Under the pieces are notes generated by a model. The model did no database searches and was not told where the DNA came from. It saw only the letters and a program-made list of their open reading frames with translations. This document shows positions 592 through 13,145 of a DNA stretch of 13,145 nucleotides, piece after piece (within the stretch, counting starts at the first letter, position 1; every line of letters begins with the position of its first letter). Source of the DNA: Sulfurimonadaceae bacterium (lineage in GTDB: Bacteria; Campylobacterota; Campylobacteria; Campylobacterales; Sulfurimonadaceae); the NCBI GenBank assembly GCA_041562555.1, contig JBFEXS010000064.1:1-13145 (forward strand), in the 5' to 3' direction. The position numbers and the translations under genes are program-made.

Positions 592-2889
592 TTAGCCAAT
601 CATCTCTTTTTGATGTATCTTCTTGAGATAAAAAGCCTGTTCTTGCTCTTGATGTTCAATCAGTCCCGCGATCTCTTTTTCACTTAACTTCAGACCGTCG
701 GGAACTTTTTCAGAATGCAGCTGAATCGCTGTTTGCTTATAGTTTGGTTCCCCTGATTTCGGACAGAAGGTCGAAGAGGTCAAGGTGTTGATCAGTTGTT
801 CACTAAAATGAAAAGGTACGAAGACATTTCCCGGTGCTACGCTCTGTGTCACCCGTACAACAACATCTTCTATACGTCCCCGTACTGAGGAGAGAGCGAT
901 CCGGTCACCCGAATTCACTTTCAGGCGTTGGGCATCGCTTGGGTTGATATCTACCCAAGCCTCGGGAGCAAGATCATTCAAGATATCGATGCTTTTTGTC
1001 TTGGTTCGTGTATGCCACTGTTCAACCGTACGCCCGGTATTCAAGATAACAGGAAACTCTGCTACTAAAGGCTCTTGTAATGGAACCCACTCTACCGGTA
1101 GAAGATTGGCTTTGGCATCCTTGGTTCGAAAAGGGATCTCTTCCGTATAGAGTCTAGGACTGCCTTCCGGATATTCCTCATTACATGGCCACTGTACGCC
1201 CCCTTTTTCTTCAAGCATCGCATACGTGATACCCGAATAGTCGCAGAACTGTCCCTTCGAGACCTTTTTCCATTCATTGAACGCATCTTCGGGTTTTTTC
1301 CAATTGGGAAAGAGGTTTTCCTGAATATTTTGGAAATACCCCGAGAACTCCACCACGATATCAAAATCACTCTTTGCCTCACCTGCCGGTTCTACAGCTT
1401 TATTCGCCCGGTTACAACGGCGTTCGGAGTTGGTATACACCCCCTCTTTCTCACCCCAGGTTCCCGCTGCAAAGACAACATCTGCCATCTCGGCTGTATC
1501 TGAATAAAAGGCATCCTGAACAACCAGCAGATCCAGTTTATCCAAGGCTGAACGCAACTTTTTCTGATTGACAAAACTGACCAAAGGATTGGTTGCGACG
1601 ATCCAAAGGGCTTTGATCTCTCCCCTGTCAATCGCATCAATGATCTCCGCATATTTGTACCCGCGTTCACGGGGTATCCATTCATAAGGAACCCTGACAA
1701 GATCAGCATACTCTTTGGCTGCTGCCTCATCCCCAAAGTTTCTGTACCCCGGTAAAGACGAAGTAAACCCTGTCTCACGAGTTCCCATAGCATTACATTG
1801 TCCAGTGATCGAGAAAGGTGCTGCACCCGGTCTACCGATTTGACCCGTGATCAGATGAAGATTATTGATGGCAGATACCGTATCTGTCCCCATGTAGGAT
1901 TGATTGACCCCCATTGTCCATGCCGTTAAAGCTGCATCCGCACCGGCAATGGAACGTGCGATCTCATACAGGTCTTTCACTTCAATGCCCGTGATATTTG
2001 CAACCTCCTGAGGAGGATAATCCTGTAGATGTCTTTGCAGTTCAGCAAAACCGTTACAATGCTTTGCAATATACTCAGCATTCTCCCATCCCTGCTCAAG
2101 GATGATATAACACAATCCATTGATCAGTGCCAGATCCGTTCTAGCTTTCACGGGAACATACATATCTGCCATCTGCGCCGTCTTAGACACACGCGGATCG
2201 ATCACGATGATCTTCGGATTTTTCTTGTTTTTGGCCAGATGCAGTTTTAATATCGGATGGTTGTCTGCAATATTTGCCCCGATCAAAGTGATCACATCTG
2301 CCTGCTCAAAGTCCTCATAACATCCCACCGGACCGTCCGATCCTAAGGACTGTTTATATCCCATAACGGCAGATGCCATACAGAGTGTTGTATTCCCGTC
2401 ATAATTGTTGGTGCGTAATCCAAGTTGTACAAACTTGCCCAGAGTATAGAACTCCTCTGTCAGTAATTGACCGGTGGAGATGACCCCGATAGCTTTTGGG
2501 CCATGTTCTTTCGTAATACGTTTGAACTCATTGCTTACCTTTCGGTAAGCTTCATCCCAGGATGCAGATCGGTGTTTCCCCTCATCTTTGATCAGTGGGG
2601 TCAAAATACGGTTGTCTGCGTTAATCATCTGATGCTCGCTCAATCCTTTTGGACAAAGAGTACCGATATTAACATCATGTTTCGGATTTCCTTTGGTGTA
2701 GACAGCTTTGCCATCTTTCACACCGATATACAGGCCACAGCCGACACCGCAATAACCACAGGTGGAAAAGACCCATTTATCCGGTTTTTTCTCATCCGAG
2801 ATGCGGCCAAAGACGGGATCATCTGAAAGCTTGTATTTTGCTTCTTTAATATCTACTCCGAGAAAATCTTTTATCTTATTAATCATCAT
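592..2889 (-). CDS. narB: Mo-bisPGD nitrate reductase catalytic subunit, NarB/NasA (assimilatory-type), cytoplasmic
   Basis: N-terminal [4Fe-4S] motif C44-x2-C47-x3-C51...C79-P-K81; STGQLLTEE; Mo-ligand segment GNTTLC170MASA; WTMGVNQS; GQCNAMGTRE; TNSERR; C-terminal LNTGR..QWHTRT. No twin-arginine leader. RBS AAGGAG lies just upstream, and the start is 2889 or 2886. Confidence 0.88.
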   Translation of the reverse strand: MMINKIKDFLGVDIKEAKYKLSDDPVFGRISDEKKPDKWVFSTCGYCGVGCGLYIGVKDGKAVYTKGNPKHDVNIGTLCPKGLSEHQMINADNRILTPLIKDEGKHRSASWDEAYRKVSNEFKRITKEHGPKAIGVISTGQLLTEEFYTLGKFVQLGLRTNNYDGNTTLCMASAVMGYKQSLGSDGPVGCYEDFEQADVITLIGANIADNHPILKLHLAKNKKNPKIIVIDPRVSKTAQMADMYVPVKARTDLALINGLCYIILEQGWENAEYIAKHCNGFAELQRHLQDYPPQEVANITGIEVKDLYEIARSIAGADAALTAWTMGVNQSYMGTDTVSAINNLHLITGQIGRPGAAPFSITGQCNAMGTRETGFTSSLPGYRNFGDEAAAKEYADLVRVPYEWIPRERGYKYAEIIDAIDRGEIKALWIVATNPLVSFVNQKKLRSALDKLDLLVVQDAFYSDTAEMADVVFAAGTWGEKEGVYTNSERRCNRANKAVEPAGEAKSDFDIVVEFSGYFQNIQENLFPNWKKPEDAFNEWKKVSKGQFCDYSGITYAMLEEKGGVQWPCNEEYPEGSPRLYTEEIPFRTKDAKANLLPVEWVPLQEPLVAEFPVILNTGRTVEQWHTRTKTKSIDILNDLAPEAWVDINPSDAQRLKVNSGDRIALSSVRGRIEDVVVRVTQSVAPGNVFVPFHFSEQLINTLTSSTFCPKSGEPNYKQTAIQLHSEKVPDGLKLSEKEIAGLIEHQEQEQAFYLKKIHQKEMIG

Positions 2890-2895
2890 CTCTCC

Positions 2896-4464
2896 TTAAT
2901 GTCTCTGTGAACCGACAAAAAATCCACCTGCCATATTCAGGGGAACGACTGTCGCATAAAACAGGAATCTGTCCATAAACTCTGACAGACTCATCATAAG
3001 CAAGGCCACTGCCAATAGTGGAATAGCCAAGGGACTAGAAATCATAACAGTGACGAGTAAAGGAAGCAACAGTGCTCCAAACACAAAACTTCCTATTCGA
3101 AGTTTTTGGTGTACGCCAAAGAAAGTTTCATAGATCTCCTCTGTCTTTGTCAACTGGGCAGTGTACACCCCACTTGTACCTAATCCTTTCTTATCCTCAT
3201 AACTAAAAAACCCCTGTGTCAGTGCAAAAAGCAGCGCCAGACTCATCAATGGCGACGCAGCCTCATATTCACCCTGCAGTAAAAGGACAAAGGACAACAG
3301 AAACAATCCGATATACGAGACCCCGAAAAACTTCAATAATGTCGTCTTGCGATTCCATGACGGACGTGCTTCGATCTGATAGATCATCCCCTGTGCATAG
3401 ATGCCGTAAGCACCTACGCCCAAAGTCAATGCTTCAAAAAAGACCCGTCCATACACGGTGAACTCAAACAGGTATAAAAGGATATTCAAAGACATAAGTC
3501 CGGTGAAGAGACCAAGAGCCAGGGCTTCACGACTTAACCATGAGGTCTTGATGTTCTTCATTGCCGTCATCGCCTTTAGGGGACGGCCCAAGTGTAATGC
3601 GGAGAGCGGAAGTCCAAGTGCTGCCGGTAACATTGCTATCAACGCCATGATCCATGTAGGTTCGTTGCGGCCACTGATGCTCAGTAGGTCTCCCAAAAAG
3701 AGTGCCAAAAATGCCCCTAGCGATATCTGGGTAAGAACGGTCATAAAGACAAGAGGCATCTCGGAGTGAGCCGGTTTCAAATGATGCGCATCTGCTGCTA
3801 TCATCTCTTCAGGCAACTTGTCAGGAAGCGTATATCGGGTAGTCGCATTCGTGACTCTTGCATCGACCAGATGAGGCATATTTCCCTGTTCGTCGATCGC
3901 ACCCTCTAACCACTCTTTTGGCTTGAACACCTCGATCTCAATCGCACCCGACGGACAGGCCTGGACGCAGGCCGGGGACTGTCCGATATCTAGACGTTCA
4001 TGACACATATGACACTTGGTAACAATATGCCTTTCCTCATGGAAGGTAGGAACCCCGTATGGACAGTTCCATGTACAATACTGACATCCGATACATGAGA
4101 GATCATCATGTATGACGATCCCGGTCTCTTCGATCTTGATATAGGAGTTTGTCGGACAACCGATCAGACAAGCCGGATCAATACAGTGGTTGCACGACAT
4201 CGAATTAAAGAGTTGACTGACCTGGGGAAAGACACCTCCCTCACTCTCTCCTACACGTCGCCATTTAATATCCAAAGGATTATTGTTTTGCTCGTTACAG
4301 GCAACTTCACAACAACGACATCCGACACAGGCAGTCGCATCAAAGTGGAAACGATAGTTCTCATCCTCCTGCAGTTCAGGTAAATCGATGCTGTAATTTC
4401 CACACTGCATTCCCGTCTGTGCTTTATAGTCGATAAATTGTTCCAATGGGGTTGCCGTGCTCAT
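2896..4464 (-). CDS. Fusion of DmsB/NrfC-type four-cluster Fe-S protein and DmsC/YnfH-type membrane anchor
   Basis: Four Cys groups (C46/49/52/56, C91/94/99/103, C124/127/130/134, C151/154/166/170). From about aa 233 it is DmsC-like: HSEMPLVFMTVLTQ, SALH291LGRP, SWLSRE313, terminal E..DRFLFY, about 8 hydrophobic helices. RBS AAGGAG at 4474-4469. Its stop TAA overlaps the narB RBS (TAAGGAG). Confidence 0.88.
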   Translation of the reverse strand: MSTATPLEQFIDYKAQTGMQCGNYSIDLPELQEDENYRFHFDATACVGCRCCEVACNEQNNNPLDIKWRRVGESEGGVFPQVSQLFNSMSCNHCIDPACLIGCPTNSYIKIEETGIVIHDDLSCIGCQYCTWNCPYGVPTFHEERHIVTKCHMCHERLDIGQSPACVQACPSGAIEIEVFKPKEWLEGAIDEQGNMPHLVDARVTNATTRYTLPDKLPEEMIAADAHHLKPAHSEMPLVFMTVLTQISLGAFLALFLGDLLSISGRNEPTWIMALIAMLPAALGLPLSALHLGRPLKAMTAMKNIKTSWLSREALALGLFTGLMSLNILLYLFEFTVYGRVFFEALTLGVGAYGIYAQGMIYQIEARPSWNRKTTLLKFFGVSYIGLFLLSFVLLLQGEYEAASPLMSLALLFALTQGFFSYEDKKGLGTSGVYTAQLTKTEEIYETFFGVHQKLRIGSFVFGALLLPLLVTVMISSPLAIPLLAVALLMMSLSEFMDRFLFYATVVPLNMAGGFFVGSQRH

Positions 4465-4729: not shown

Positions 4730-6010
4730 ATGGCAGGTTTGAAAGCATTAAAAGGTGAAGGTCATTGGCCGACACTGTTAGCAGCTTTTTTATATTTCGA
4801 TTTTAGTTTTATGGTGTGGACCATGTTGGGACCACTTTCTACAGAGATCTCTGAGTCGCTCGCAGCAACAGGTTTTATCATTTCTGCAGGGCAAAAAGCG
4901 ACCCTGCTCTCATTACCGATTCTAGCTGGAGCATTGCTAAGAATCTTACTTGGATTTGGTGTCGATAAGTTTGGTGCGAAGAAGACGGCACTTATATCCC
5001 AGGCGGTTGTTATTTCCGCACTTTTTTTTGCCTACTTTCAGGGTGAGCATATCACCTATTCACAACTACTGGTAGTAGCCCTTGGTCTTGGATTTGCAGG
5101 TGCTTCATTCGCAGTTGCCCTTCCACAGGCCGGTCAATGGTATCCGCCAAAGCTTCAAGGTGTCGTCTTGGGAATTGCAGGTGCCGGTAATATTGGTGTC
5201 GTGATCGACTTTTTGTTCGCTCCGAAGATTGCTGAGCATTGGGGATGGCAATCAGTCTTCCTGGTTGGTGCGGTGCTTTCTACTATCATTTTCGTGACCT
5301 ATATTTTCATGGCAAAAGATGCCCCGGAGAGCGTTTATAAATCAAACCCGAAATCTTTGAAGGATTACGCTAAATTGCTTAAAGACAAAGATACGTGGTG
5401 GTTCAACCTCTTTTATGCGATCAGCTTCGGCGGGTTTGTCGGTTTTGCAGGATATATGAAAGTGTACCTGATGAACACCTATGCACCAGAAATGGCAGAG
5501 TATGGTCTGTCATGGCTAGCCGAAGAGAATGTTAAGGTCATGGCAGGATATTTTGGCGCGCTCTGTATCTTTGCCGGTGCAGTACTCCGTCCGGTTGGCG
5601 GTGCGATCGCGGATAAGATGGGTGGTGTAAAATCTCTCTATATCTTTTTTGGAATGGTAGCGACCCTGGCTGTGATCAACGCACTGGTTGAACTTCCGTT
5701 TGCAGCAGCTATCCTCGTGCTTTTCCTGATCATGGCAAACCTTGGTATGGCAAATGGTGCAGTATTCCAACTTGTACCACAGCGTTTTGGAAAAGACATC
5801 GGTATCATGACCGGTATCATCGGTGCAGCAGGCGGTCTTGGCGGTACGGCACTGATCAAGACACTGGGTTGGTCAAAAGGTGCCTTTGACGGATATACAG
5901 CAGGTTTCCTGATTTTTGCCGGTGTCGTTTTTGTGGCGATCGCAGGGATCTCATTTGTCAAAACACGTTGGAGAACAACATGGGGTGCAGCAGCGGGTGG
6001 ACGTATCTAG
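4730..6010 (+). CDS. narK: MFS nitrate/nitrite transporter, NarK/NasA (NNP) family
   Basis: About 12 hydrophobic segments; conserved substrate Arg in ALLRILLG and AVLRPVGG; nitrate-signature segments GFAGASFAVALPQAGQWYP...GIAGAGN and GMANGAVFQLVPQRF...GIIGAAGGLGG. Divergent from narB. Confidence 0.92.
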   Translation: MAGLKALKGEGHWPTLLAAFLYFDFSFMVWTMLGPLSTEISESLAATGFIISAGQKATLLSLPILAGALLRILLGFGVDKFGAKKTALISQAVVISALFFAYFQGEHITYSQLLVVALGLGFAGASFAVALPQAGQWYPPKLQGVVLGIAGAGNIGVVIDFLFAPKIAEHWGWQSVFLVGAVLSTIIFVTYIFMAKDAPESVYKSNPKSLKDYAKLLKDKDTWWFNLFYAISFGGFVGFAGYMKVYLMNTYAPEMAEYGLSWLAEENVKVMAGYFGALCIFAGAVLRPVGGAIADKMGGVKSLYIFFGMVATLAVINALVELPFAAAILVLFLIMANLGMANGAVFQLVPQRFGKDIGIMTGIIGAAGGLGGTALIKTLGWSKGAFDGYTAGFLIFAGVVFVAIAGISFVKTRWRTTWGAAAGGRI

Positions 6011-6087
6011 TCCACCACTCCACCCATGGTATTGAGCCTATCTTCGAACATCTTCTTTCCTTTTAGTCATCGATTCAACATAAGTAT

Positions 6088-6115
6088 TGTGATTAGATCA
6101 CATTTAAGCTAGAAT
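6088..6115 (+). promoter_or_regulatory. Putative promoter of the diguanylate cyclase with an adjacent palindrome
   Basis: gcTAGAAT -10 at 6110-6115, preceded by TTTAA. Inverted repeat TGTGAT-TAG-ATCACA at 6088-6102. RBS GGAG at 6141-6144. Confidence 0.45.
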
Positions 6116-6150
6116 GACTGTATAGAACTATATTTACTCTGGAGTTTTCC

Positions 6151-7413
6151 ATGAAAAAACTACTTATCGTCGATGATAGTGAAACAGTACTGAATATTTT
6201 CAAAGATGCACTCAAAAACGCTCCTGAGATTGAGGCACTGTATGCTGAAAGTTACAATGAGGCGATGCGTATCATACGTTTAAACCCCGATCAGATTCAT
6301 GCGGCCATTCTTGATTACAATCTTCCCGATGCCCCAAAAGGGGAGGTCATCGCACTGGCAAATTCCAATAACATCCCTACCGTCGTTTTGACCGGCAGCC
6401 TGAACAAAGACACCCGGAACATCATCTTAAAAAAGAATGTCATTGATTTTATCCTTAAAAATGATCCGAACAGCATCCGTTCTGCGCTGGATTCAGCCAA
6501 TAAAGCACTTAAAAACTATGATACCACCGTTCTTATTGCCGATGACTCCAAACTGTCGCGTGAACTGATCAAGATGAGTCTGGAAACCATTCATCTCAAC
6601 ATCATGGAAGCCACCAACGGACAAGAAGCACTGGACCTCGTATTAAGCGATGAACATAATATCTCTTTACTCATCACCGATTATGAGATGCCCGAGATAG
6701 ACGGTTTGGACCTTACCTTCACACTTCGGGAGAAGTTTTCAAAAGCCCAGCTTGGTATCATCGCCATGAGCGGTGCTGAGGACGAAGAGACCATCTCTAA
6801 ATTTCTCAAACTCGGGGCGAATGATTTTGTTCATAAACCTCCCGTTCCCAATGAGATTATTACGACGGTCAATGCGAATCTGGAGCTTCTAAGTCTTTTT
6901 GAACAAGTTCAGGAGCTGGCAAACAAGGACTTTTTGACAGGAGCCTATAATCGACGCCATTTCTTTGACACCGGTGAAGCCATATTTTTGAAAGCGAAAC
7001 GTAAAGACCTTCCTTTATCCGTGGCAATGCTGGATATTGATAAATTTAAAATCATCAATGATACCTATGGACATGACGTGGGAGATATAGCGATCAAGGA
7101 GGTAAAGACGATTTTGGAGACAACCCTCAGACGTTCTGACCTGTTTGCACGTTTCGGAGGAGAAGAGTTCTGTATCCTGCTGGAGGGGGTCTCTCTTGAA
7201 GACGTTCAAATGCTCTTCGAAAAGATACGCACCAAGTTTGAAAAGAACACAATCCATACGAAGGACACATCTGTCTCCTATACTGTTTCTATAGGTGTCG
7301 TCTATGGTATGGCAGACTCTCTCGAGGCTTTGGTTAATTTATCCGATGAAGCACTCTATTTTGCAAAAGAACATGGTCGAAACCAGGTCAAGATCAATAC
7401 CCATACTATTTAA
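6151..7413 (+). CDS. Response-regulator diguanylate cyclase (REC-REC-GGDEF, PleD-like architecture)
   Basis: REC1: IVDD, D55, T81, K103. REC2: IADD, D177, S207, K229-P. GGDEF domain: DFLTGAYNRR, DIDKFKIINDTYGHDVGD, I-site RRSD five residues before GGEEF, and ALYFAKEHGRN. Confidence 0.93.
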   Translation: MKKLLIVDDSETVLNIFKDALKNAPEIEALYAESYNEAMRIIRLNPDQIHAAILDYNLPDAPKGEVIALANSNNIPTVVLTGSLNKDTRNIILKKNVIDFILKNDPNSIRSALDSANKALKNYDTTVLIADDSKLSRELIKMSLETIHLNIMEATNGQEALDLVLSDEHNISLLITDYEMPEIDGLDLTFTLREKFSKAQLGIIAMSGAEDEETISKFLKLGANDFVHKPPVPNEIITTVNANLELLSLFEQVQELANKDFLTGAYNRRHFFDTGEAIFLKAKRKDLPLSVAMLDIDKFKIINDTYGHDVGDIAIKEVKTILETTLRRSDLFARFGGEEFCILLEGVSLEDVQMLFEKIRTKFEKNTIHTKDTSVSYTVSIGVVYGMADSLEALVNLSDEALYFAKEHGRNQVKINTHTI

Positions 7414-7428
7414 TAAACAAGGAAAAAT

Positions 7429-9075
7429 GTGTTAAAAGTCCAGTCATCCCAATATATACTCCCAAAGGCGGAAGGTATCCAAGGCGATGATGCCTGCGAT
7501 TTTGCCATTTTAGAAAAATCACTGCTTGTCGCTGTCCTGTGCGACGGTGTCGGCTCTGCTAAGAAGGGAGGTGCTGCAGCCCGTCAAAGTGTCAAGTTCT
7601 TCATTGATCATTTTAAAACCCGGCCAAAAAACTGGGACATCACGCAAAGCCTCACACTCTTTACCCAGCATATCAACCGTCTGCTTTTCAAGGAGTCTAT
7701 GACCCAGTATGAACGTATTGAACTCTTGACGACACTCTGTGTTGCCGTCATCGAAGGAGAAACGCTCTATACGATGAACCTTGGTGATTCGCGTATCTAC
7801 CTCCTGGATAAAGATCAGAACCTTCGTCAACTGAGTGAAGATCATATCATGGATGAAGAGCACCTCTCCCACGTTTTGGTACAAGCCTGCGGACTAAGTG
7901 AACATGTTGAACCGGTCATCACTGCAACAAGTATCGCAAAAGGAGACACGCTTATCCTATGCAGTGATGGTCTGACATCTTTGATCAGTGATGAGGAGAT
8001 CAAAACCGAGATCCTCAAGGGACTCGGAGCAACGACCCTGGTACAAAGTGCCGCCAAAGACCATAAGGACAATGAACGTGATGATATCTCACTGCAGATC
8101 TTTCGTATAGAAGAACTCGATCAGCGACATGCCCTGATGAAACAGGATCTTCTTATCCCTCAAACCCTGAAGAAGGGAGATATCTATGATGAATATGAGC
8201 TTGTCTCATCCATAGTGGAACATGGACGTATCTGGAAGGTACAAAAAGAGGACAAAACCTATGTGATGAAGTTTCCTATGGTACAAGCCATTGATGACCC
8301 CATGGCACTCGAAGAGTTCGTCAAAGAAGCCTGGTATGCCAAACAGATCCACCATAAAGCCTTTGGAGAGGCCTGGGTACCTGAAAATCGTTCCGCACGT
8401 TATTATCTCATGGAACTTGTCGAAGGAATCAACCTTGCCGAATATGTTAAAAACCGCCCTATTACGATCGATTCAGCTATTGCCTTGGCCAAATTCTTGC
8501 ACAAGGCCGAAGCACATCTTTTACATTTTGGGCTGGTACACGGGGATATCAAGCCTGAGAATATCATTGTCTATAAGAAAGAGGGAGAAGTCGGTGTCGA
8601 TTTCAAGATGGTCGATTTTGGATCGGTCGTAGAGGTATTCGAAGTCAATTCCAGAGCAGGTACACCCTCTTTTCTCGCTCCGGAACGTTTCAATGGCAAT
8701 GCCATCAATGAATCGACCGAAATCTTCTCTATCGGAGTCACACTCTATTGGGCCTTGACCGGTAAATACCCCTATGGGGAGATCGAGCCCTTTCAGACCC
8801 CAAGCTTTAAGACGGCAAAACGACCCAGCCTGTATAATAAAAACATCCCTCATTGGTTTGAATCAATCATCATGCGATCCATAGAAATCGATGTAGAACA
8901 CCGCTATAGCCACTATTCTGAATTCTTTTATGAGCTGAAATCACCAGAGAAGGTCAAACCCTATTATGAGAAAGACTCCTCTTTCATCGAGCGCGAACCT
9001 CTGTTGTTTTATAAGGCCGGTTTTTTCATCATGCTGATCATCAATGTTGTCGGCTTTATCTACTACAATGCCTAA
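7429..9075 (+). CDS. Bifunctional PP2C protein phosphatase / Ser-Thr protein kinase with C-terminal membrane helix
   Basis: PP2C motifs GDDA, LCDGVG, NLGDSR, LSEDH, LCSDGL and DDIS. Kinase motifs VMK, E.F.KE, HGDIKPEN, DFG, GTPSFLAPE and EIFSIG. Hydrophobic C-terminus AGFFIMLIINVVGFIYY. GTG start after AAGGA. Confidence 0.9.
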   Translation: MLKVQSSQYILPKAEGIQGDDACDFAILEKSLLVAVLCDGVGSAKKGGAAARQSVKFFIDHFKTRPKNWDITQSLTLFTQHINRLLFKESMTQYERIELLTTLCVAVIEGETLYTMNLGDSRIYLLDKDQNLRQLSEDHIMDEEHLSHVLVQACGLSEHVEPVITATSIAKGDTLILCSDGLTSLISDEEIKTEILKGLGATTLVQSAAKDHKDNERDDISLQIFRIEELDQRHALMKQDLLIPQTLKKGDIYDEYELVSSIVEHGRIWKVQKEDKTYVMKFPMVQAIDDPMALEEFVKEAWYAKQIHHKAFGEAWVPENRSARYYLMELVEGINLAEYVKNRPITIDSAIALAKFLHKAEAHLLHFGLVHGDIKPENIIVYKKEGEVGVDFKMVDFGSVVEVFEVNSRAGTPSFLAPERFNGNAINESTEIFSIGVTLYWALTGKYPYGEIEPFQTPSFKTAKRPSLYNKNIPHWFESIIMRSIEIDVEHRYSHYSEFFYELKSPEKVKPYYEKDSSFIEREPLLFYKAGFFIMLIINVVGFIYYNA

Positions 9076-9119
9076 GGACGTCGGCGTACAGGCTCCATAA
9101 GGCAGATGACACGACATTA

Positions 9120-9128
9120 TGCTACAAT
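9120..9128 (+). promoter_or_regulatory. Putative extended -10 promoter for the hypothetical-protease-trxC unit
   Basis: TGcTACAAT in the 101-nt intergenic gap, about 48 nt before the ATG at 9177. Confidence 0.5.
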
Positions 9129-9176
9129 AATCAAACAGAACCTTCGGGTTATAAGTTCCTATCGCAAGGCGTATGT

Positions 9177-10490
9177 ATGTTTTCTTGGTTTACCTCTTTG
9201 TTCCATGTATCACCTCAGCCTACATATTCTTTTGGACGTTTCATCTCCTATAAAAAGACTCCTCAACAGCAAGACTCCTATCAAGCTTCTAAAAAAGCAT
9301 TCTCTCAGCAGCGTTATCTGGAGGGCTACGAATATTATTTTGAGTATCTTAAGTTTTATGAAGATGGTGAAGAGAGCGGGAACATCTCCTATGAGAAGAA
9401 GCATGACACCTTATATTTCAAGATCATTCAGGGCTCGGCTATTATCCAGGGGAACATCACACAAAGGCGTCTGAGTGCGACCGCCAATATCGCACATACC
9501 GTCAATGATAATATCGCCGTGATGCGACGGCTCCTGGAAAAGAACTATATGTATACCTATACCAGTTTTTACCTGGAGAAAGAGACCCTTAAAGCCAAGA
9601 TATTTTTCGACAATATTGCCCTCTCACCACAGAAAGTCTTTTTTCCCCTGCGCGAACTCACCATCAATGCAGATAAAGAAAAAGAGCTCTTATTGGACGA
9701 ATTCAACGACCTTGATCCCATCGAGTTGGATCATATCGAAGCCATGAACCCTCATCTAAAAGAGACTAAACTTCGTTTTTATCGCGAATGGATCGATAAG
9801 ACGGAACAGAAGGTCTCCCTTCTTCCCAGCCGGGAGCAATCCGGGGCGATCGCTTTTGTCTGGCTTACCCTGCTGCTTAAAATCGACTACTTCGTCACGC
9901 CCAGGGGGAAACTGGGATATGACATCTATGAAGCCATTCAGGAATACTATATTGATGACAACAAGCTGATCGAAGAGAAAAACGATGCCCTCCAAAAAGC
10001 AACGATTAAATTCAAAGAGATTGATTCCCAGCAGCTTGCTAAGAGTCTTTACAGTGTCAAGCAGACCTTTGATATCTTCAGTGCGAATAACCTGGATGAG
10101 ATACGTGCCTTTATCGAAGAGACTCTGGGAAAGATCATCTGGTACAAGGAACACCGATATGAAGAGATCATTCTGACGATTTATGAATATCTCGGACTCT
10201 ACATGCTCTATAACTTTGGAATGAATGACTGTCTTAAAGAGTTTGTTCAGCTTAATGTACGTCTTCACAATACCGATTTCCACTCTGCTCTGGGAATGGA
10301 CAGTCTCTATAAAGGAGATAAGATCAACAGTTCGAAAGTATCCAAAAAGATATCTCAGACTATTGCATTCTATGCCAAGACCTACCCGCATCTGCATGAT
10401 TTTTCGGCTCAACTCAATTATGAGTCCCTGGAGAAATTCCATCACTCCTATTTCAATGCCTTGAGAACCCTGAATTTTAGTGAGCTATAA
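9177..10490 (+). CDS. Uncharacterised 437-aa protein with a probable YbjN/CesT-like domain (aa ~81-176) and a helical C-terminal region
   Basis: Long ORF filling the gap between recognised genes. AAGG lies upstream and the stop abuts the next start. aa 81-176 align by eye with the C-terminal domain of the downstream protease. The fold name is inferred. Confidence 0.8.
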   Translation: MFSWFTSLFHVSPQPTYSFGRFISYKKTPQQQDSYQASKKAFSQQRYLEGYEYYFEYLKFYEDGEESGNISYEKKHDTLYFKIIQGSAIIQGNITQRRLSATANIAHTVNDNIAVMRRLLEKNYMYTYTSFYLEKETLKAKIFFDNIALSPQKVFFPLRELTINADKEKELLLDEFNDLDPIELDHIEAMNPHLKETKLRFYREWIDKTEQKVSLLPSREQSGAIAFVWLTLLLKIDYFVTPRGKLGYDIYEAIQEYYIDDNKLIEEKNDALQKATIKFKEIDSQQLAKSLYSVKQTFDIFSANNLDEIRAFIEETLGKIIWYKEHRYEEIILTIYEYLGLYMLYNFGMNDCLKEFVQLNVRLHNTDFHSALGMDSLYKGDKINSSKVSKKISQTIAFYAKTYPHLHDFSAQLNYESLEKFHHSYFNALRTLNFSEL

Positions 10491-10491
10491 C

Positions 10492-11583
10492 ATGAATACG
10501 CAAGAGATATTAGACACCTACCAAGAGAGTATCATCCAGATCGAGACACCTTTGGCTTCCGGTTCGGGATTTTACCTTCAAAAACACGAACTGATTATCA
10601 CCAACTCACATGTAGTTGCCGGGCTCAAAGAGGTCGTCATCTCTTCCAAAGACATCAAACGGCGTGAAGCAACCGTCATTTACGATGATCCCAAATATGA
10701 CCTTGCCTTTATACGGACAGAAGTCTCGTTAAAAGTCAAAAACCCTCTTCATCTTTCTCAAGAGAGTGTCCATGACGGAGACAGAGTCGTCGCTATCGGC
10801 CATCCCTATGGTCTTAATTATACCGCGACGGAAGGAATCGTCTCTAAGGCCGCACGCCTCCAAGGCGAATTGGAATATATTCAGATCGATGCTGCGATCA
10901 ACCCGGGGAACAGTGGAGGACCGTTACTCAACGTCAACGGCGAGGTAATAGGTGTCAACACCTTTATAATCCAAAACTCCAACAATTTGGGATTCGCTCT
11001 GCCTTTCTCCTACGTCCAAGAAGCCCTTGACGCCTTTAAAGCCTTGGATAAACACGGGGTCATACGCTGTTCGTCCTGTCTCAACCTTGTACAAGAAGTA
11101 GATATCAAAGATGACTACTGCCCGGAATGTGGAGTCAAGATCGATATCGCCAAAAAACGACGCGAAGGATATACCCCTGTCGGGACCATCAAGACAGTTG
11201 AGAATATTTTAAGGGATATGGGTAAGGATGTTGCTCTCTCCCGCAGAGGACAACGTATGTGGCAGATCGACATCGGGTCTGCCCGTGTCGAAATATCCTA
11301 TTATGACAACGGTATCATCGTGGCCGATGCTTCCTTATGCCGTCTTCCCCATGAGAACATCGAAAAAATCTATCATTTCATGTTGGAAGAAAACACCAAG
11401 ATGGATTATCTCCAGTTTGCCATAAACGACAACACGATATTACTCTCATATATCATCGTGGACAGCTCTTTGGAAGAAAAAAATGGGAGTATCGCCTTGG
11501 GAAGACTCTTCAACAAGGCAGATATCTATGATGACATCCTGATCAACACCTATGGTGCACTTGTCATCAAACGCGATGATTAA
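10492..11583 (+). CDS. Cytoplasmic trypsin-like (S1C/HtrA-type) serine protease with Zn ribbon and YbjN-like C-terminal domain, no PDZ
   Basis: Numbering follows the 367-aa track ORF: SGSGF, TNSH44VV, D74LA, IQIDAAINPGNS145GGPL, then C197xxC200...C214xxC217. No signal peptide. The ATG at 10492 (1 nt after the upstream stop) is preferred over the GTG at 10480. Confidence 0.9.
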   Translation: MNTQEILDTYQESIIQIETPLASGSGFYLQKHELIITNSHVVAGLKEVVISSKDIKRREATVIYDDPKYDLAFIRTEVSLKVKNPLHLSQESVHDGDRVVAIGHPYGLNYTATEGIVSKAARLQGELEYIQIDAAINPGNSGGPLLNVNGEVIGVNTFIIQNSNNLGFALPFSYVQEALDAFKALDKHGVIRCSSCLNLVQEVDIKDDYCPECGVKIDIAKKRREGYTPVGTIKTVENILRDMGKDVALSRRGQRMWQIDIGSARVEISYYDNGIIVADASLCRLPHENIEKIYHFMLEENTKMDYLQFAINDNTILLSYIIVDSSLEEKNGSIALGRLFNKADIYDDILINTYGALVIKRDD

Positions 11584-11604
11584 TTACATTAAAGGAGAAC
11601 TATT

Positions 11605-12039
11605 ATGAGTGAAACGATTCATATTGTCTGTCCCTACTGTAACGGGACAAATCGGGTTGCATCTGAAAACATCACAAAAGAAGTGAAATGCGGCCGATGC
11701 AAAGAAAATATTTTTGACACCAGACCCATCGAACTGACGACCGAGAATATCGCTCAGCATCTGGAAAAAAACGATATTCCTGTGATCATAGACTTTTGGG
11801 CTCCCTGGTGTGGACCGTGTAAGATAATGGGACCCAACTTTGAGCAGGCTGCTCAAGGATTTAGGACAAAAGTACGTTTTGCCAAAGTTAATACCGAAGC
11901 GCAGCAAAGCCTTGGAGGACATTTTAATATCCGTTCTATTCCCACACTTATACTGTTTAAAAAGGGCAAAGAGGTAGATCGGGTATCTGGGGCCTTAGAT
12001 GCTTCAGCACTCCACAACTGGATTAACAGCAAACTTTGA
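11605..12039 (+). CDS. trxC: Thioredoxin 2 (Zn-finger thioredoxin)
   Basis: N-terminal CPYC...CGRC zinc finger, DFWAPWCGPC active site and IRSIPTL cis-Pro motif. RBS AAGGAG. Confidence 0.93.
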   Translation: MSETIHIVCPYCNGTNRVASENITKEVKCGRCKENIFDTRPIELTTENIAQHLEKNDIPVIIDFWAPWCGPCKIMGPNFEQAAQGFRTKVRFAKVNTEAQQSLGGHFNIRSIPTLILFKKGKEVDRVSGALDASALHNWINSKL

Positions 12040-12128
12040 TTATAATATTTTCTAATTTCATGAGGTAACAGTTTAGGCAATTCTTTGACTTTCACTGACA
12101 AAGCATATCATACCACCATGTTTTATTG

Positions 12129-12134
12129 TAAAAT
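12129..12134 (+). promoter_or_regulatory. Possible -10 element for the downstream kinase gene
   Basis: TAAAAT 31 nt upstream of the ATG at 12166. The context is AT-rich, so this is weak evidence. Confidence 0.3.
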
Positions 12135-12165
12135 AATCTAACCTGTGTTGAAAGGGATTTGTTCT

Positions 12166-13145
12166 ATGCCATTAAGCAATTTTAAGATTCTGCTTACCCT
12201 TCATGAAAACAGCACGACGAAAGTCTACAGGGCGATCCGTAAATCGTATCACAAAAAGGTCATTATCAAAGAGCTTAAATATGCTGCCAGAACAGCACAT
12301 ATGATGAGCACCTTTATTAACGAGCAAAAAATACTCGATAAACTAAAACATAAAAACATAATCCACCTTATAGATGTGCTCTATACTCCGACTGAGTACC
12401 TTCACATCTTTGAAGACATCGAAGCAGATTCTCTCTTTGATCTTGTATCTATACACCCTTTTTCCCTTAAAGAGGCCCTGAAGATCTCCCTTGACCTGGC
12501 CAAAGTCCTTCAACTCCTTCATAATAACCAGATCCTTCATTCGGACATTAACCCAAAAAACATCATCTATAATCCGAATACTTCACAATTGCAATTGATC
12601 GACTTCGGAAATGCCTTACATTATGCGAATAAAACCCTTTTGGAAAAACCAAACGATACAACATCGGCAAACCTTTTTTATATCTCTCCGGAACAGACCG
12701 GTCTGACAACGTATACGATTGACGAGCGAAGTGACCTTTATAGCTTTGGGATGACTCTGTATCACCTCTTTTTGGGTCATTCTCCCTTTGAAGCGATTGA
12801 TCGATATGAGCTTTTTCATAAACAGATTGCTCTGCGTCCCAAGCCTTTACATGAACGCAGGTCTAATTTCCCCCCTGTCTTGTCATATATCATCTCAAAA
12901 CTGATTGAAAAGAACCCCTTTGATCGATATCAAAATGATGAAAGCCTAATCCACGATCTGCAATCGTGTTTGGCAGGACTAAGCCCACTGGATACAATCG
13001 AAGCATTTCCTATCGCCCGGTATGACCACCCCCCTATTGAGATCGGTGAACATCTGTATGGACGGGAAACTGAGCTCAAACAACTCAAAAAGATCTTATC
13101 AGAGGCACTTCTTTTGGATCCCGTTCGCCTGTTCATCTCCGGTGA
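12166..13145 (+). CDS. Ser/Thr kinase - AAA/STAND ATPase multidomain signalling protein (HstK-like 'trifunctional' family); 3'-partial
   Basis: Absent from the ORF track because it has no stop in the window. Manual translation from ATG 12166 (RBS AAGGGA) is open for 326 codons: MPLSNFKILLTLHENSTTKVYRA...VIIKEL...FINEQ...LHSDINPKNII...LIDFG...YISPEQTG...DERSDLYSFG...EKNPFDRYQ...HLYGRETELKQL...RLFISG. The last segment is the typical lead-in to a Walker A motif. Confidence 0.9.
   Translation, partial: MPLSNFKILLTLHENSTTKVYRAIRKSYHKKVIIKELKYAARTAHMMSTFINEQKILDKLKHKNIIHLIDVLYTPTEYLHIFEDIEADSLFDLVSIHPFSLKEALKISLDLAKVLQLLHNNQILHSDINPKNIIYNPNTSQLQLIDFGNALHYANKTLLEKPNDTTSANLFYISPEQTGLTTYTIDERSDLYSFGMTLYHLFLGHSPFEAIDRYELFHKQIALRPKPLHERRSNFPPVLSYIISKLIEKNPFDRYQNDESLIHDLQSCLAGLSPLDTIEAFPIARYDHPPIEIGEHLYGRETELKQLKKILSEALLLDPVRLFISG

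Follow-up and report, generated by a model that had tools for sequence, protein, structure and literature searches.

The 13,145-nt contig JBFEXS010000064.1 of a Sulfurimonadaceae bacterium (assembly GCA_041562555.1; this whole stretch of DNA is hereafter referred to as the window) carries a two-gene unit on its + strand, i.e., a gene for a 437-aa protein (the partner gene; 9177–10490) followed by a gene for an HtrA-type protease (10492–11583), and this gene pair is conserved across phyla. Both proteins contain a domain with the fold of YbjN and of the class I type III secretion system (T3SS) chaperones, and complex prediction supports the view that the partner and the protease bind each other as a heterodimer through these two domains. 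On balance, we lean modestly towards a reading in which the two genes encode subunits of one probably cytoplasmic protease complex, with a composite YbjN module that would bind peptide and feed or gate the protease, and with the partner acting as its adaptor or regulator.

The two genes are co-directional. The start codon of the partner open reading frame (ORF; protein P0001) is backed by homologues that also open with MFSW, and its stop codon occupies 10488–10490. For the 363-aa protease (P0071), the start codon is ATG 10492 rather than GTG 10480, because all 23 of its 23 aligned homologues begin with MNTQ, and with this start codon the intergenic gap is therefore 1 nt. The same spacing had been given in an earlier note on this DNA, made from the sequence alone, in which the protease residues were nevertheless counted from GTG 10480 and are consequently numbered four too high (i.e., its S145 is the S141 of the present numbering). 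In a promoter/terminator scan of 6000–13145, no terminator was seen between genes of the + strand, nor anything that would mark the operon limits, and searches of the window for Rfam families and tRNAs gave no matches.

The starting point for a shared domain was an alignment by eye in the earlier note, in which partner residues 81–176 (9417–9704) were set against protease residues 261–358 in GTG 10480 numbering (11260–11553). All motif pairs listed there (i.e., FKIIQGSA/WQIDIGSA, SATANI/VADASL, DNI/ENI, and LLEKN/MLEEN) are present in the translations at these coordinates, and the eight identities claimed for an ungapped run of 43 residues (Y5, F8, T14, L26, L35, L38, A42, and D43) were all verified, with BLASTP returning the same alignment. 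However, this BLASTP segment was only the sixth of seven weak ones between the partner and the protease (20/96 identities, 13.9 bits, E = 11), and the lone pairwise match is therefore no better than chance.

The comparison was accordingly made between families, using a 24-sequence partner alignment (A1), the same alignment widened to 37 sequences (A7), 23 close protease relatives (A2), and 90 diverse full-length protease relatives (A3). The latter were drawn from the 217 clusters retrieved at E ≤ 1e-3 in an exhaustive HMMER search with the zinc ribbon and C-terminal part of the protease as query, while the protease C-terminal domain (CTD) on its own was represented by a 21-sequence profile (A4). 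Using hhalign, A1 against A2 yielded a single match, in the register of the earlier note (56%, E = 1.1e-4), which rose to 95.6% (E = 1.2e-8) against A3 and to 97.3% (E = 1.7e-11, 128 columns, same register) when A7 was compared with A3. When only the partner domain and the protease CTD were aligned, the match reached 98.5% (E = 3.2e-15), thus providing the mutual profile match that the earlier note had anticipated for both segments. None of the 24 controls exceeded 2.3%, whether the CTD was reversed (1.0%) or column-shuffled (20 of 20 at or below 2.3%, with E ≥ 0.02), the partner YbjN-like domain was compared with the protease catalytic domain (0.2%), or the partner C-terminal domain was compared with the CTD (0.1%) or the catalytic domain (0.3%). 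Moreover, within a small set of ORFs, a hidden Markov model (HMM) of the CTD matched the partner ORFs of the window (3.6e-3) and of three loci in other genomes that are described below, i.e., from Chitinophaga (L002; 4.8e-6), Aquimarina megaterium (L003; 1.2e-5), and an Ignavibacteriaceae member (L001; 5.5e-5). Judged by these profiles, the domain common to the partner and the protease is real.

The term paralogous, as applied to both segments in the earlier note, stands at the level of the superfamily but not in the sense of nearest kin. Specifically, the nearest relation of the protease CTD is not to the partner domain but, by a wide margin, to stand-alone YbjN-like proteins of the 2PLG type (ca. 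140 aa; hhalign 100%, E = 1.7e-57), to which the partner domain aligns at 97.5% (E = 7e-12). Six Met-initiated, stand-alone proteins of ca. 140 aa that are close relatives of the CTD (P0290, P0296, P0305, P0317, P0324, and P0336) are of the same type as PDB entry 2PLG.

Both proteins have the YbjN/class I T3SS-chaperone-like fold (a superfamily corresponding to Pfam clan CL0097, according to the available part of PMC13466201), in line with the YbjN/CesT-type fold suggested by the earlier note. For the partner, this assignment rests on the AlphaFold2 (AF2) model (predicted local distance difference test [pLDDT] of 87.6; predicted template modelling score [pTM] of 0.85), whose N-terminal domain was compared with the PDB via Foldseek. 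The best match was 2PLG (E = 8.5e-4), and a Foldseek probability of 1.00 was obtained for 2PLG, ExsC, PA14_16140, SigE, AmyR, CesT, E. coli YbjN, SycH, SicP, and others. For the protease, the A4 profile of the CTD reached 2PLG among the PDB sequences at E = 8.3e-8 and over nearly the full 2PLG length, making 2PLG, described as a distant YbjN protein in the available part of PMC5398634, the best match for both YbjN-like domains. A Foldseek search with the full protease model returned HtrA protease-domain matches only, and is therefore silent on the fold of the CTD. Among the 90 protease family members, 19 matched the Pfam family TY-Chap1 (best E = 4.2e-4) and 14 matched YbjN (best E = 5.6e-5), while TY-Chap1 was touched by two of the 24 partner relatives, at 0.13. 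Some of the Flavobacteriia partner homologues carry the NCBI labels "YbjN domain-containing protein" or "type III secretion system chaperone family protein". The order of elements that typifies the superfamily (i.e., helix, beta-meander, helix, two strands, and final helix) is found in both AF2 models, spanning residues 47–175 of the partner (helix 47–58, four strands within 70–108, helix 113–125, two strands within 130–145, and helix 156–175) and residues 231–354 of the protease (helix 231–242, four strands within 251–284, helix 290–303, two strands within 307–323, and helix 329–354).

The possible association of both proteins was addressed with a complex predictor that was given the full-length, uncut proteins with their alignments, paired as a heterodimer and with the interface free to choose. 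The complex score had a median of 0.78 (0.73, 0.78, and 0.79 in the individual runs), compared with 0.00 for the best of three controls. The mark was attained in 116 of 157 solved complexes and in two of 215 mismatched pairs, although this calibration is a rough one since our own alignments were used. At least 95% of the contacts were common to the runs, with a partner pLDDT of at least 86. In each protein, the predicted interface comprises the second helix and the two next strands of the YbjN-like domain. According to the contact list, it covers residues 111–156 of the partner (9507–9644, + strand; helix 113–125 and strands 130–145) and residues 273–326 of the protease (11308–11469, + strand; helix 290–303 and strands 307–323), with the LLEKN/MLEEN motif located inside it. 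Homologous positions differ by an offset of +178 (e.g., L120/L298 and N123/N301), and under this offset the tightest contacts are reciprocal (i.e., residue 298 with 132/133, and residues 310/311 with 120/121), so that the predicted dimer is pseudo-two-fold symmetric. The predicted heterodimer uses elements equivalent to those of the AmyR dimer interface, which consists of the "bent alpha-helix 67-82 and beta-strand 88-92" in the available part of PMC5398634. By prediction, the heterodimer proposed in the earlier note thus falls exactly on the two homologous domains.

It is rather improbable, in our estimation, that the partner and the protease do not bind each other at all, each forming separate homodimers, with their adjacency reflecting co-regulation in a shared pathway. 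Such an arrangement would agree with YbjN and class I chaperones usually being homodimers (PMC5398634, available part) and with the CTD lying far nearer to stand-alone YbjN-like proteins than to the domain of the partner, and the complex score could stem from a memory of solved dimers. The clear separation of this score from its controls (0.78 vs. 0.00) nevertheless speaks against it, and a precedent for heterodimers exists in SycN–YscB (1XKP, cited in the available part of PMC5398634). The genomic distribution of both genes bears on the same question.

Genome contigs were scanned with the full-length alignment A2 and with patterns taken from Campylobacterota sequences (GHPYGLNY and DAAINPGN), upon which 80 loci were kept out of at least 602 stretches, mostly generic HtrA genes; none of these 80 loci belongs to the Campylobacterota. 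The full protease architecture was present in three of them, from an Ignavibacteriaceae metagenome-assembled genome (MAG; L001), a Chitinophaga MAG (L002, a locus cut by the contig end), and A. megaterium (L003). The protease triad is intact in all three, and in all three a partner homologue lies directly upstream of the protease gene and abuts it, bearing out the linkage in other genomes and phyla on which the earlier note had made its proposal depend. An HMM of the partner N-terminal domain recognized the upstream ORFs of L001, L002, and L003 at 1.1e-26, 1.3e-28, and 1.1e-7, respectively (hmmsearch), while an HMM of the partner C-terminal domain gave matches at 1.1e-49 and 5.5e-56 and no match in L003. 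The genes flanking the pair are all different among these loci (AnmK, SDRs, and a FabD-like acyltransferase; DnaN; a TPR histidine kinase, a cadherin-domain protein, and LemA), and only the two-gene unit is therefore conserved. Downstream of the Aquimarina pair (9104–12539 of L003), two small ORFs without a family are followed by LemA, DUF1266, and DUF3137 genes on the same strand.

Beyond these loci, a profile search retrieved partner homologues of 401 aa from many Flavobacteriia. Within the Campylobacterota, the evidence for linkage is indirect. When the cluster lists of both families were compared by eye, the longest contig of 25 out of 46 protease clusters (at least 79% identity) was of exactly the same size as that of a partner cluster, including contigs of 2,989–3,685 nt that have room for little beyond the gene pair. 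The distance matrices of 25 pairs (24 of these plus that of the window) were correlated (r = 0.81), a value that none of 1000 permutations reached, and divergence is faster in the partner (mean distance of 0.272 vs. 0.173 for the protease over the 25 matched pairs). Both this correlated divergence and the retention of an abutting pair in at least three phyla, amid neighbourhoods that otherwise differ, argue against two proteins that merely share a pathway, and hence in favour of their being subunits of one complex.

The protease itself consists of three parts. Its HtrA-type (S1C) protease domain (residues 1–185; 10492–11046, + strand) matches Pfam Trypsin_2 at 4.4e-29 and has an intact catalytic triad of H40 (10609–10611), D70 (10699–10701), and S141 (10912–10914). 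Among the PDB sequences, the protease matched HtrA proteases at 1e-34, the entries retrieved being HtrA, HhoA, HtrA1/2, DegS, AlgW, and MucD, and its AF2 model (pLDDT of 95.6; pTM of 0.91) matched protease-only chains of HtrA1 and DegS in Foldseek (TMt of 0.83–0.84). The NCBIfam model TIGR02037 matched at 1e-49, over the protease domain only and with 169.7 bits vs. a cut-off of 416.2, and all 12 HtrA-type NCBIfam models remained under their cut-offs. The protease domain is followed by a C4 zinc ribbon (residues 186–224; 11047–11163, + strand; C193, C196, C210, and C213), which gave a weak match to Zn_ribbon_NOB1 (0.0088) and whose four cysteines are found in 90 of the 90 family representatives. 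The YbjN-like CTD (residues 225–363; 11164–11580, + strand) then takes the position where HtrA proteases carry PDZ domains. No PDZ domain was found at E ≤ 0.01 in the whole protease or at E ≤ 10 in its C-terminal 127 residues. Likewise, hydropathy analysis revealed no transmembrane or signal-like segment and no hydrophobic N-terminus (the highest 19-residue Kyte-Doolittle mean was 1.16, and not N-terminal), and the protease is therefore probably cytoplasmic. The PDZ-less, cytoplasmic protease of the earlier note is thus retained, with the location as a probable one.

With its H40-D70-S141 triad, the protease of the window looks active. Across the family, the three residues are kept in 58 of the 90 representatives, while at least one of them is substituted in the other 32; the four zinc-ribbon cysteines and W257 are kept in all 90, including the triad-deficient 32. 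These losses imply that proteolysis is not the function conserved throughout the family. Many of the triad-deficient relatives may be non-catalytic binders (i.e., pseudo-proteases), or the alignment may misplace some of the residues.

The partner matches no Pfam or NCBIfam family and is composed, from its N-terminus, of a disordered tail, two helices, the YbjN-like domain, and an all-alpha domain. The tail (residues 1–28; 9177–9260, + strand) is modelled with low confidence (pLDDT below 50 for residues 1–15 in AF2), and its start is aromatic and conserved. It also carries an FGR(F)I motif, whose F19, G20, and R21 show no or almost no variation within A1, while TYFPPI replaces this motif in Flavobacteriia partners. 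The YbjN-like domain, delimited by its hhalign match to the CTD and its Foldseek matches to 2PLG, ExsC, AmyR, CesT, and YbjN, spans residues 60–180 (9354–9716, + strand). The all-alpha domain (residues 186–437; 9732–10487, + strand) has eleven helices in the AF2 model and belongs to no known family; partner profiles found nothing significant for it among the PDB sequences, and an Atlas look-up returned only sub-threshold matches to unnamed clusters (0.81 and 0.76), with no named match.

The conserved tail brings up a different relation between both proteins, in which the partner would be the dedicated substrate or inhibitor of the protease, docked via the YbjN-like domains, with the protease kept latent for as long as the partner is neither degraded nor released, and with the tail as the bound or cleaved segment. 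The same predicted complex fits this arrangement, conserved low-confidence tails are of the kind bound by chaperone folds and by protease active sites, and the faster divergence of the partner (cf. the mean distances above) would agree with it as well. Nevertheless, the confident predicted contacts omit both the tail and the protease active site. Moreover, a third of the family representatives are triad-deficient yet keep the zinc ribbon and the CTD, a pattern that is a poor match for a pure protease-inhibitor pair. We deem a substrate or inhibitor role unlikely for the partner, although the observations made here fit it and the adaptor or regulator role within one protease complex alike, and continue with the latter.

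In such a complex, a C4 zinc ribbon and a YbjN/T3SS-chaperone-like domain stand where an HtrA-type protease usually has its C-terminal, peptide-binding PDZ domain, while the upstream gene would bring in a second, divergent copy of the latter, joined to the conserved tail and the all-alpha domain. The two YbjN-like domains are predicted to pair via the helix and strand that make up the dimer interface of stand-alone YbjN proteins and class I chaperones, yielding a pseudo-symmetric heterodimer. In HtrA proteases, the PDZ domains serve as binding sites for peptides with a recruiting or activating effect. Class I chaperone dimers, for their part, wrap extended peptides (PMC5398634, available part). 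By analogy with both, the composite module may bind an extended client or activator peptide, and the peptide-bound module could then deliver substrates to the protease or gate it, with the partner as adaptor or regulator.

A number of observations weigh against this reading. At the level of the shared domain, the pairwise likeness of both segments is that expected by chance (BLASTP E = 11), no Pfam model matches the two YbjN-like segments of the window itself at E ≤ 10, and the partner profile reaches 2PLG among the PDB sequences at E = 1.3 only. At the level of the complex, dimers of YbjN proteins and T3SS chaperones have been solved, and the score may therefore partly reflect likeness to these instead of binding. 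At the level of the genomes, direct adjacency was seen in four loci only (i.e., the window and L001–L003), and none of the 72 listed Campylobacterota protease clusters (P0119–P0190; 62–66% identity) has a contig equal in size to one with a partner cluster. Finally, 32 of the 90 representatives are without the full triad.

A bolder variant, which we regard as speculative and unlikely to hold in full, takes the pair of YbjN-like domains, which form the T3SS-chaperone branch with the widest distribution and the poorest understanding, for a heterodimeric substitute of the PDZ domain, with the tail or all-alpha domain of the partner sensing a signal (perhaps phosphorylation by the products of the flanking PP2C-kinase and Ser/Thr kinase genes in Sulfurimonas) and, via the YbjN:YbjN pairing, switching a cytoplasmic HtrA protease on a specific client, and with the triad-less relatives acting as non-catalytic holdases. 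If true, this would amount to a new class of regulated cytoplasmic proteolysis and to the first mechanistic role of the YbjN fold outside secretion.

The surroundings of the pair in the window were examined as well. A 548-aa ORF with a PP2C phosphatase (residues 15–227) fused to a Ser/Thr kinase (residues 272–494) lies upstream (7429–9075, + strand) and ends 101 nt before the partner gene; it is itself preceded, at a distance of 15 nt, by the gene for a response regulator of 420 aa that combines receiver domains with a GGDEF domain (6151–7413, + strand), for which the best NCBIfam model was the bile-resistance regulator CbrR (233.7 bits vs. a cut-off of 600). A thioredoxin-2-type gene (N-terminal zinc ribbon plus thioredoxin; 11605–12039, + strand) begins 21 nt past the protease stop codon and has no counterpart behind the pair in either L001 or L003, while a second Ser/Thr kinase gene begins at 12145; neither kinase occurs beside the pair in L001–L003. 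Whether the flanking kinase, phosphatase, GGDEF, and thioredoxin genes belong to the system as conserved components was also weighed, and the idea was rejected since L001–L003 do not have them. Further away, on the - strand (592–4464), a molybdopterin oxidoreductase gene (765 aa) adjoins one for a 522-aa protein that combines a 4Fe-4S dicluster and a DmsC-type membrane anchor in one ORF.

These neighbours also bear on the anti-phage option that the earlier note had left among the possible roles, i.e., a defence or conflict system in which the YbjN-like domains would sense a phage protein and the protease would be the effector. The flanking Ser/Thr kinases of the window resemble PD-T4-6 and mad6, the protease domain matches PADLOC RT-Protease_XI at 2e-21, and TY-Chap1 has been defined in ADP-ribose-centred conflict systems (PMC9503650, available part). 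Nevertheless, the partner has no PADLOC match and the protease matches are limited to the generic trypsin domain. The kinases are not conserved beside the pair, the flanks of L001–L003 are housekeeping or unrelated genes (AnmK, FabD-like, SDRs, DnaN, TPR histidine kinase, and LemA), and many close Campylobacterota contigs carry the pair at 65–90% identity, which looks like vertical inheritance. A defence role thus appears highly improbable, and this part of the earlier note is not upheld.

Comparison with known systems places the pair between several families. The TY-Chap1 matches of the protease relatives (PF22551; 19 of 90, best E = 4.2e-4) provide a likeness to systems that centre on ADP-ribosylglycohydrolase (ARG; PMC9503650, available part), while no ARG, Macro, or NADAR domains occur in the window or in L001–L003. 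The fold found by Foldseek is likewise that of the class I T3SS chaperones (CesT, SicP, SycH, ExsC, and SycN–YscB), which are dimers that hold extended peptides; as SycN–YscB demonstrates, a functional dimer of this fold can be built from two unlike chains (PMC5398634, available part). However, the domains described here are embedded in larger proteins, their client would be a substrate or activator of a protease instead of a secreted effector, and no type III secretion or effector families are present among the genes of the window or of L001–L003.

With the YbjN family (E. coli YbjN, Erwinia AmyR, Deinococcus DR1245, P. aeruginosa BacA/PA14_16140, and 2PLG), both domains share the fold and, as predicted here, the helix-strand dimer interface. 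In contrast to the known members, which are stand-alone proteins of about 130–160 aa, they are fused to a protease or to an all-alpha domain and are predicted to form a heterodimer. That a YbjN protein can partner another protein has a precedent in DR1245 (PMC3575483, available part). In a 2026 review (PMC13466201), YbjN is singled out as the best-represented sub-family of the T3SS-chaperone clan and yet as a "surprisingly understudied" one, and the word "protease" is absent from the available part of that review. Our search of the full-text literature, from which subscription journals largely fall outside, found no description of a protease fused to a YbjN fold, nor of the gene pair, and to that extent the module can still be called undescribed, as it was in the earlier note. 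The pair would give the YbjN fold a concrete and testable job, and the module is small (two genes) and occurs in several phyla, in marine and sediment bacteria that are not pathogens, with a precise predicted interface that suits ordinary biochemistry.

HtrA proteases are the textbook case of PDZ-gated, extracytoplasmic quality control. The protease of the window descends from HtrA and works likewise, having in common with HtrA, DegP, and DegS (MEROPS S1C) the chymotrypsin-fold domain, the His-Asp-Ser triad, and a C-terminal module after the protease domain, which in HtrA is peptide-binding and regulatory. In contrast to these proteases, it has a zinc ribbon and a YbjN-like C-terminus in place of a PDZ domain, is without a signal peptide or membrane anchor by hydropathy (and thus without the export of HtrA), scores under the curated NCBIfam cut-off (169.7 vs. 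416.2 bits), goes with a separately encoded partner, and has 32 relatives among 90 that are without the full triad. A probably cytoplasmic, PDZ-less form of HtrA, equipped with another peptide-binding fold and with a separate partner of that same fold, would represent a new regulatory design for this family.

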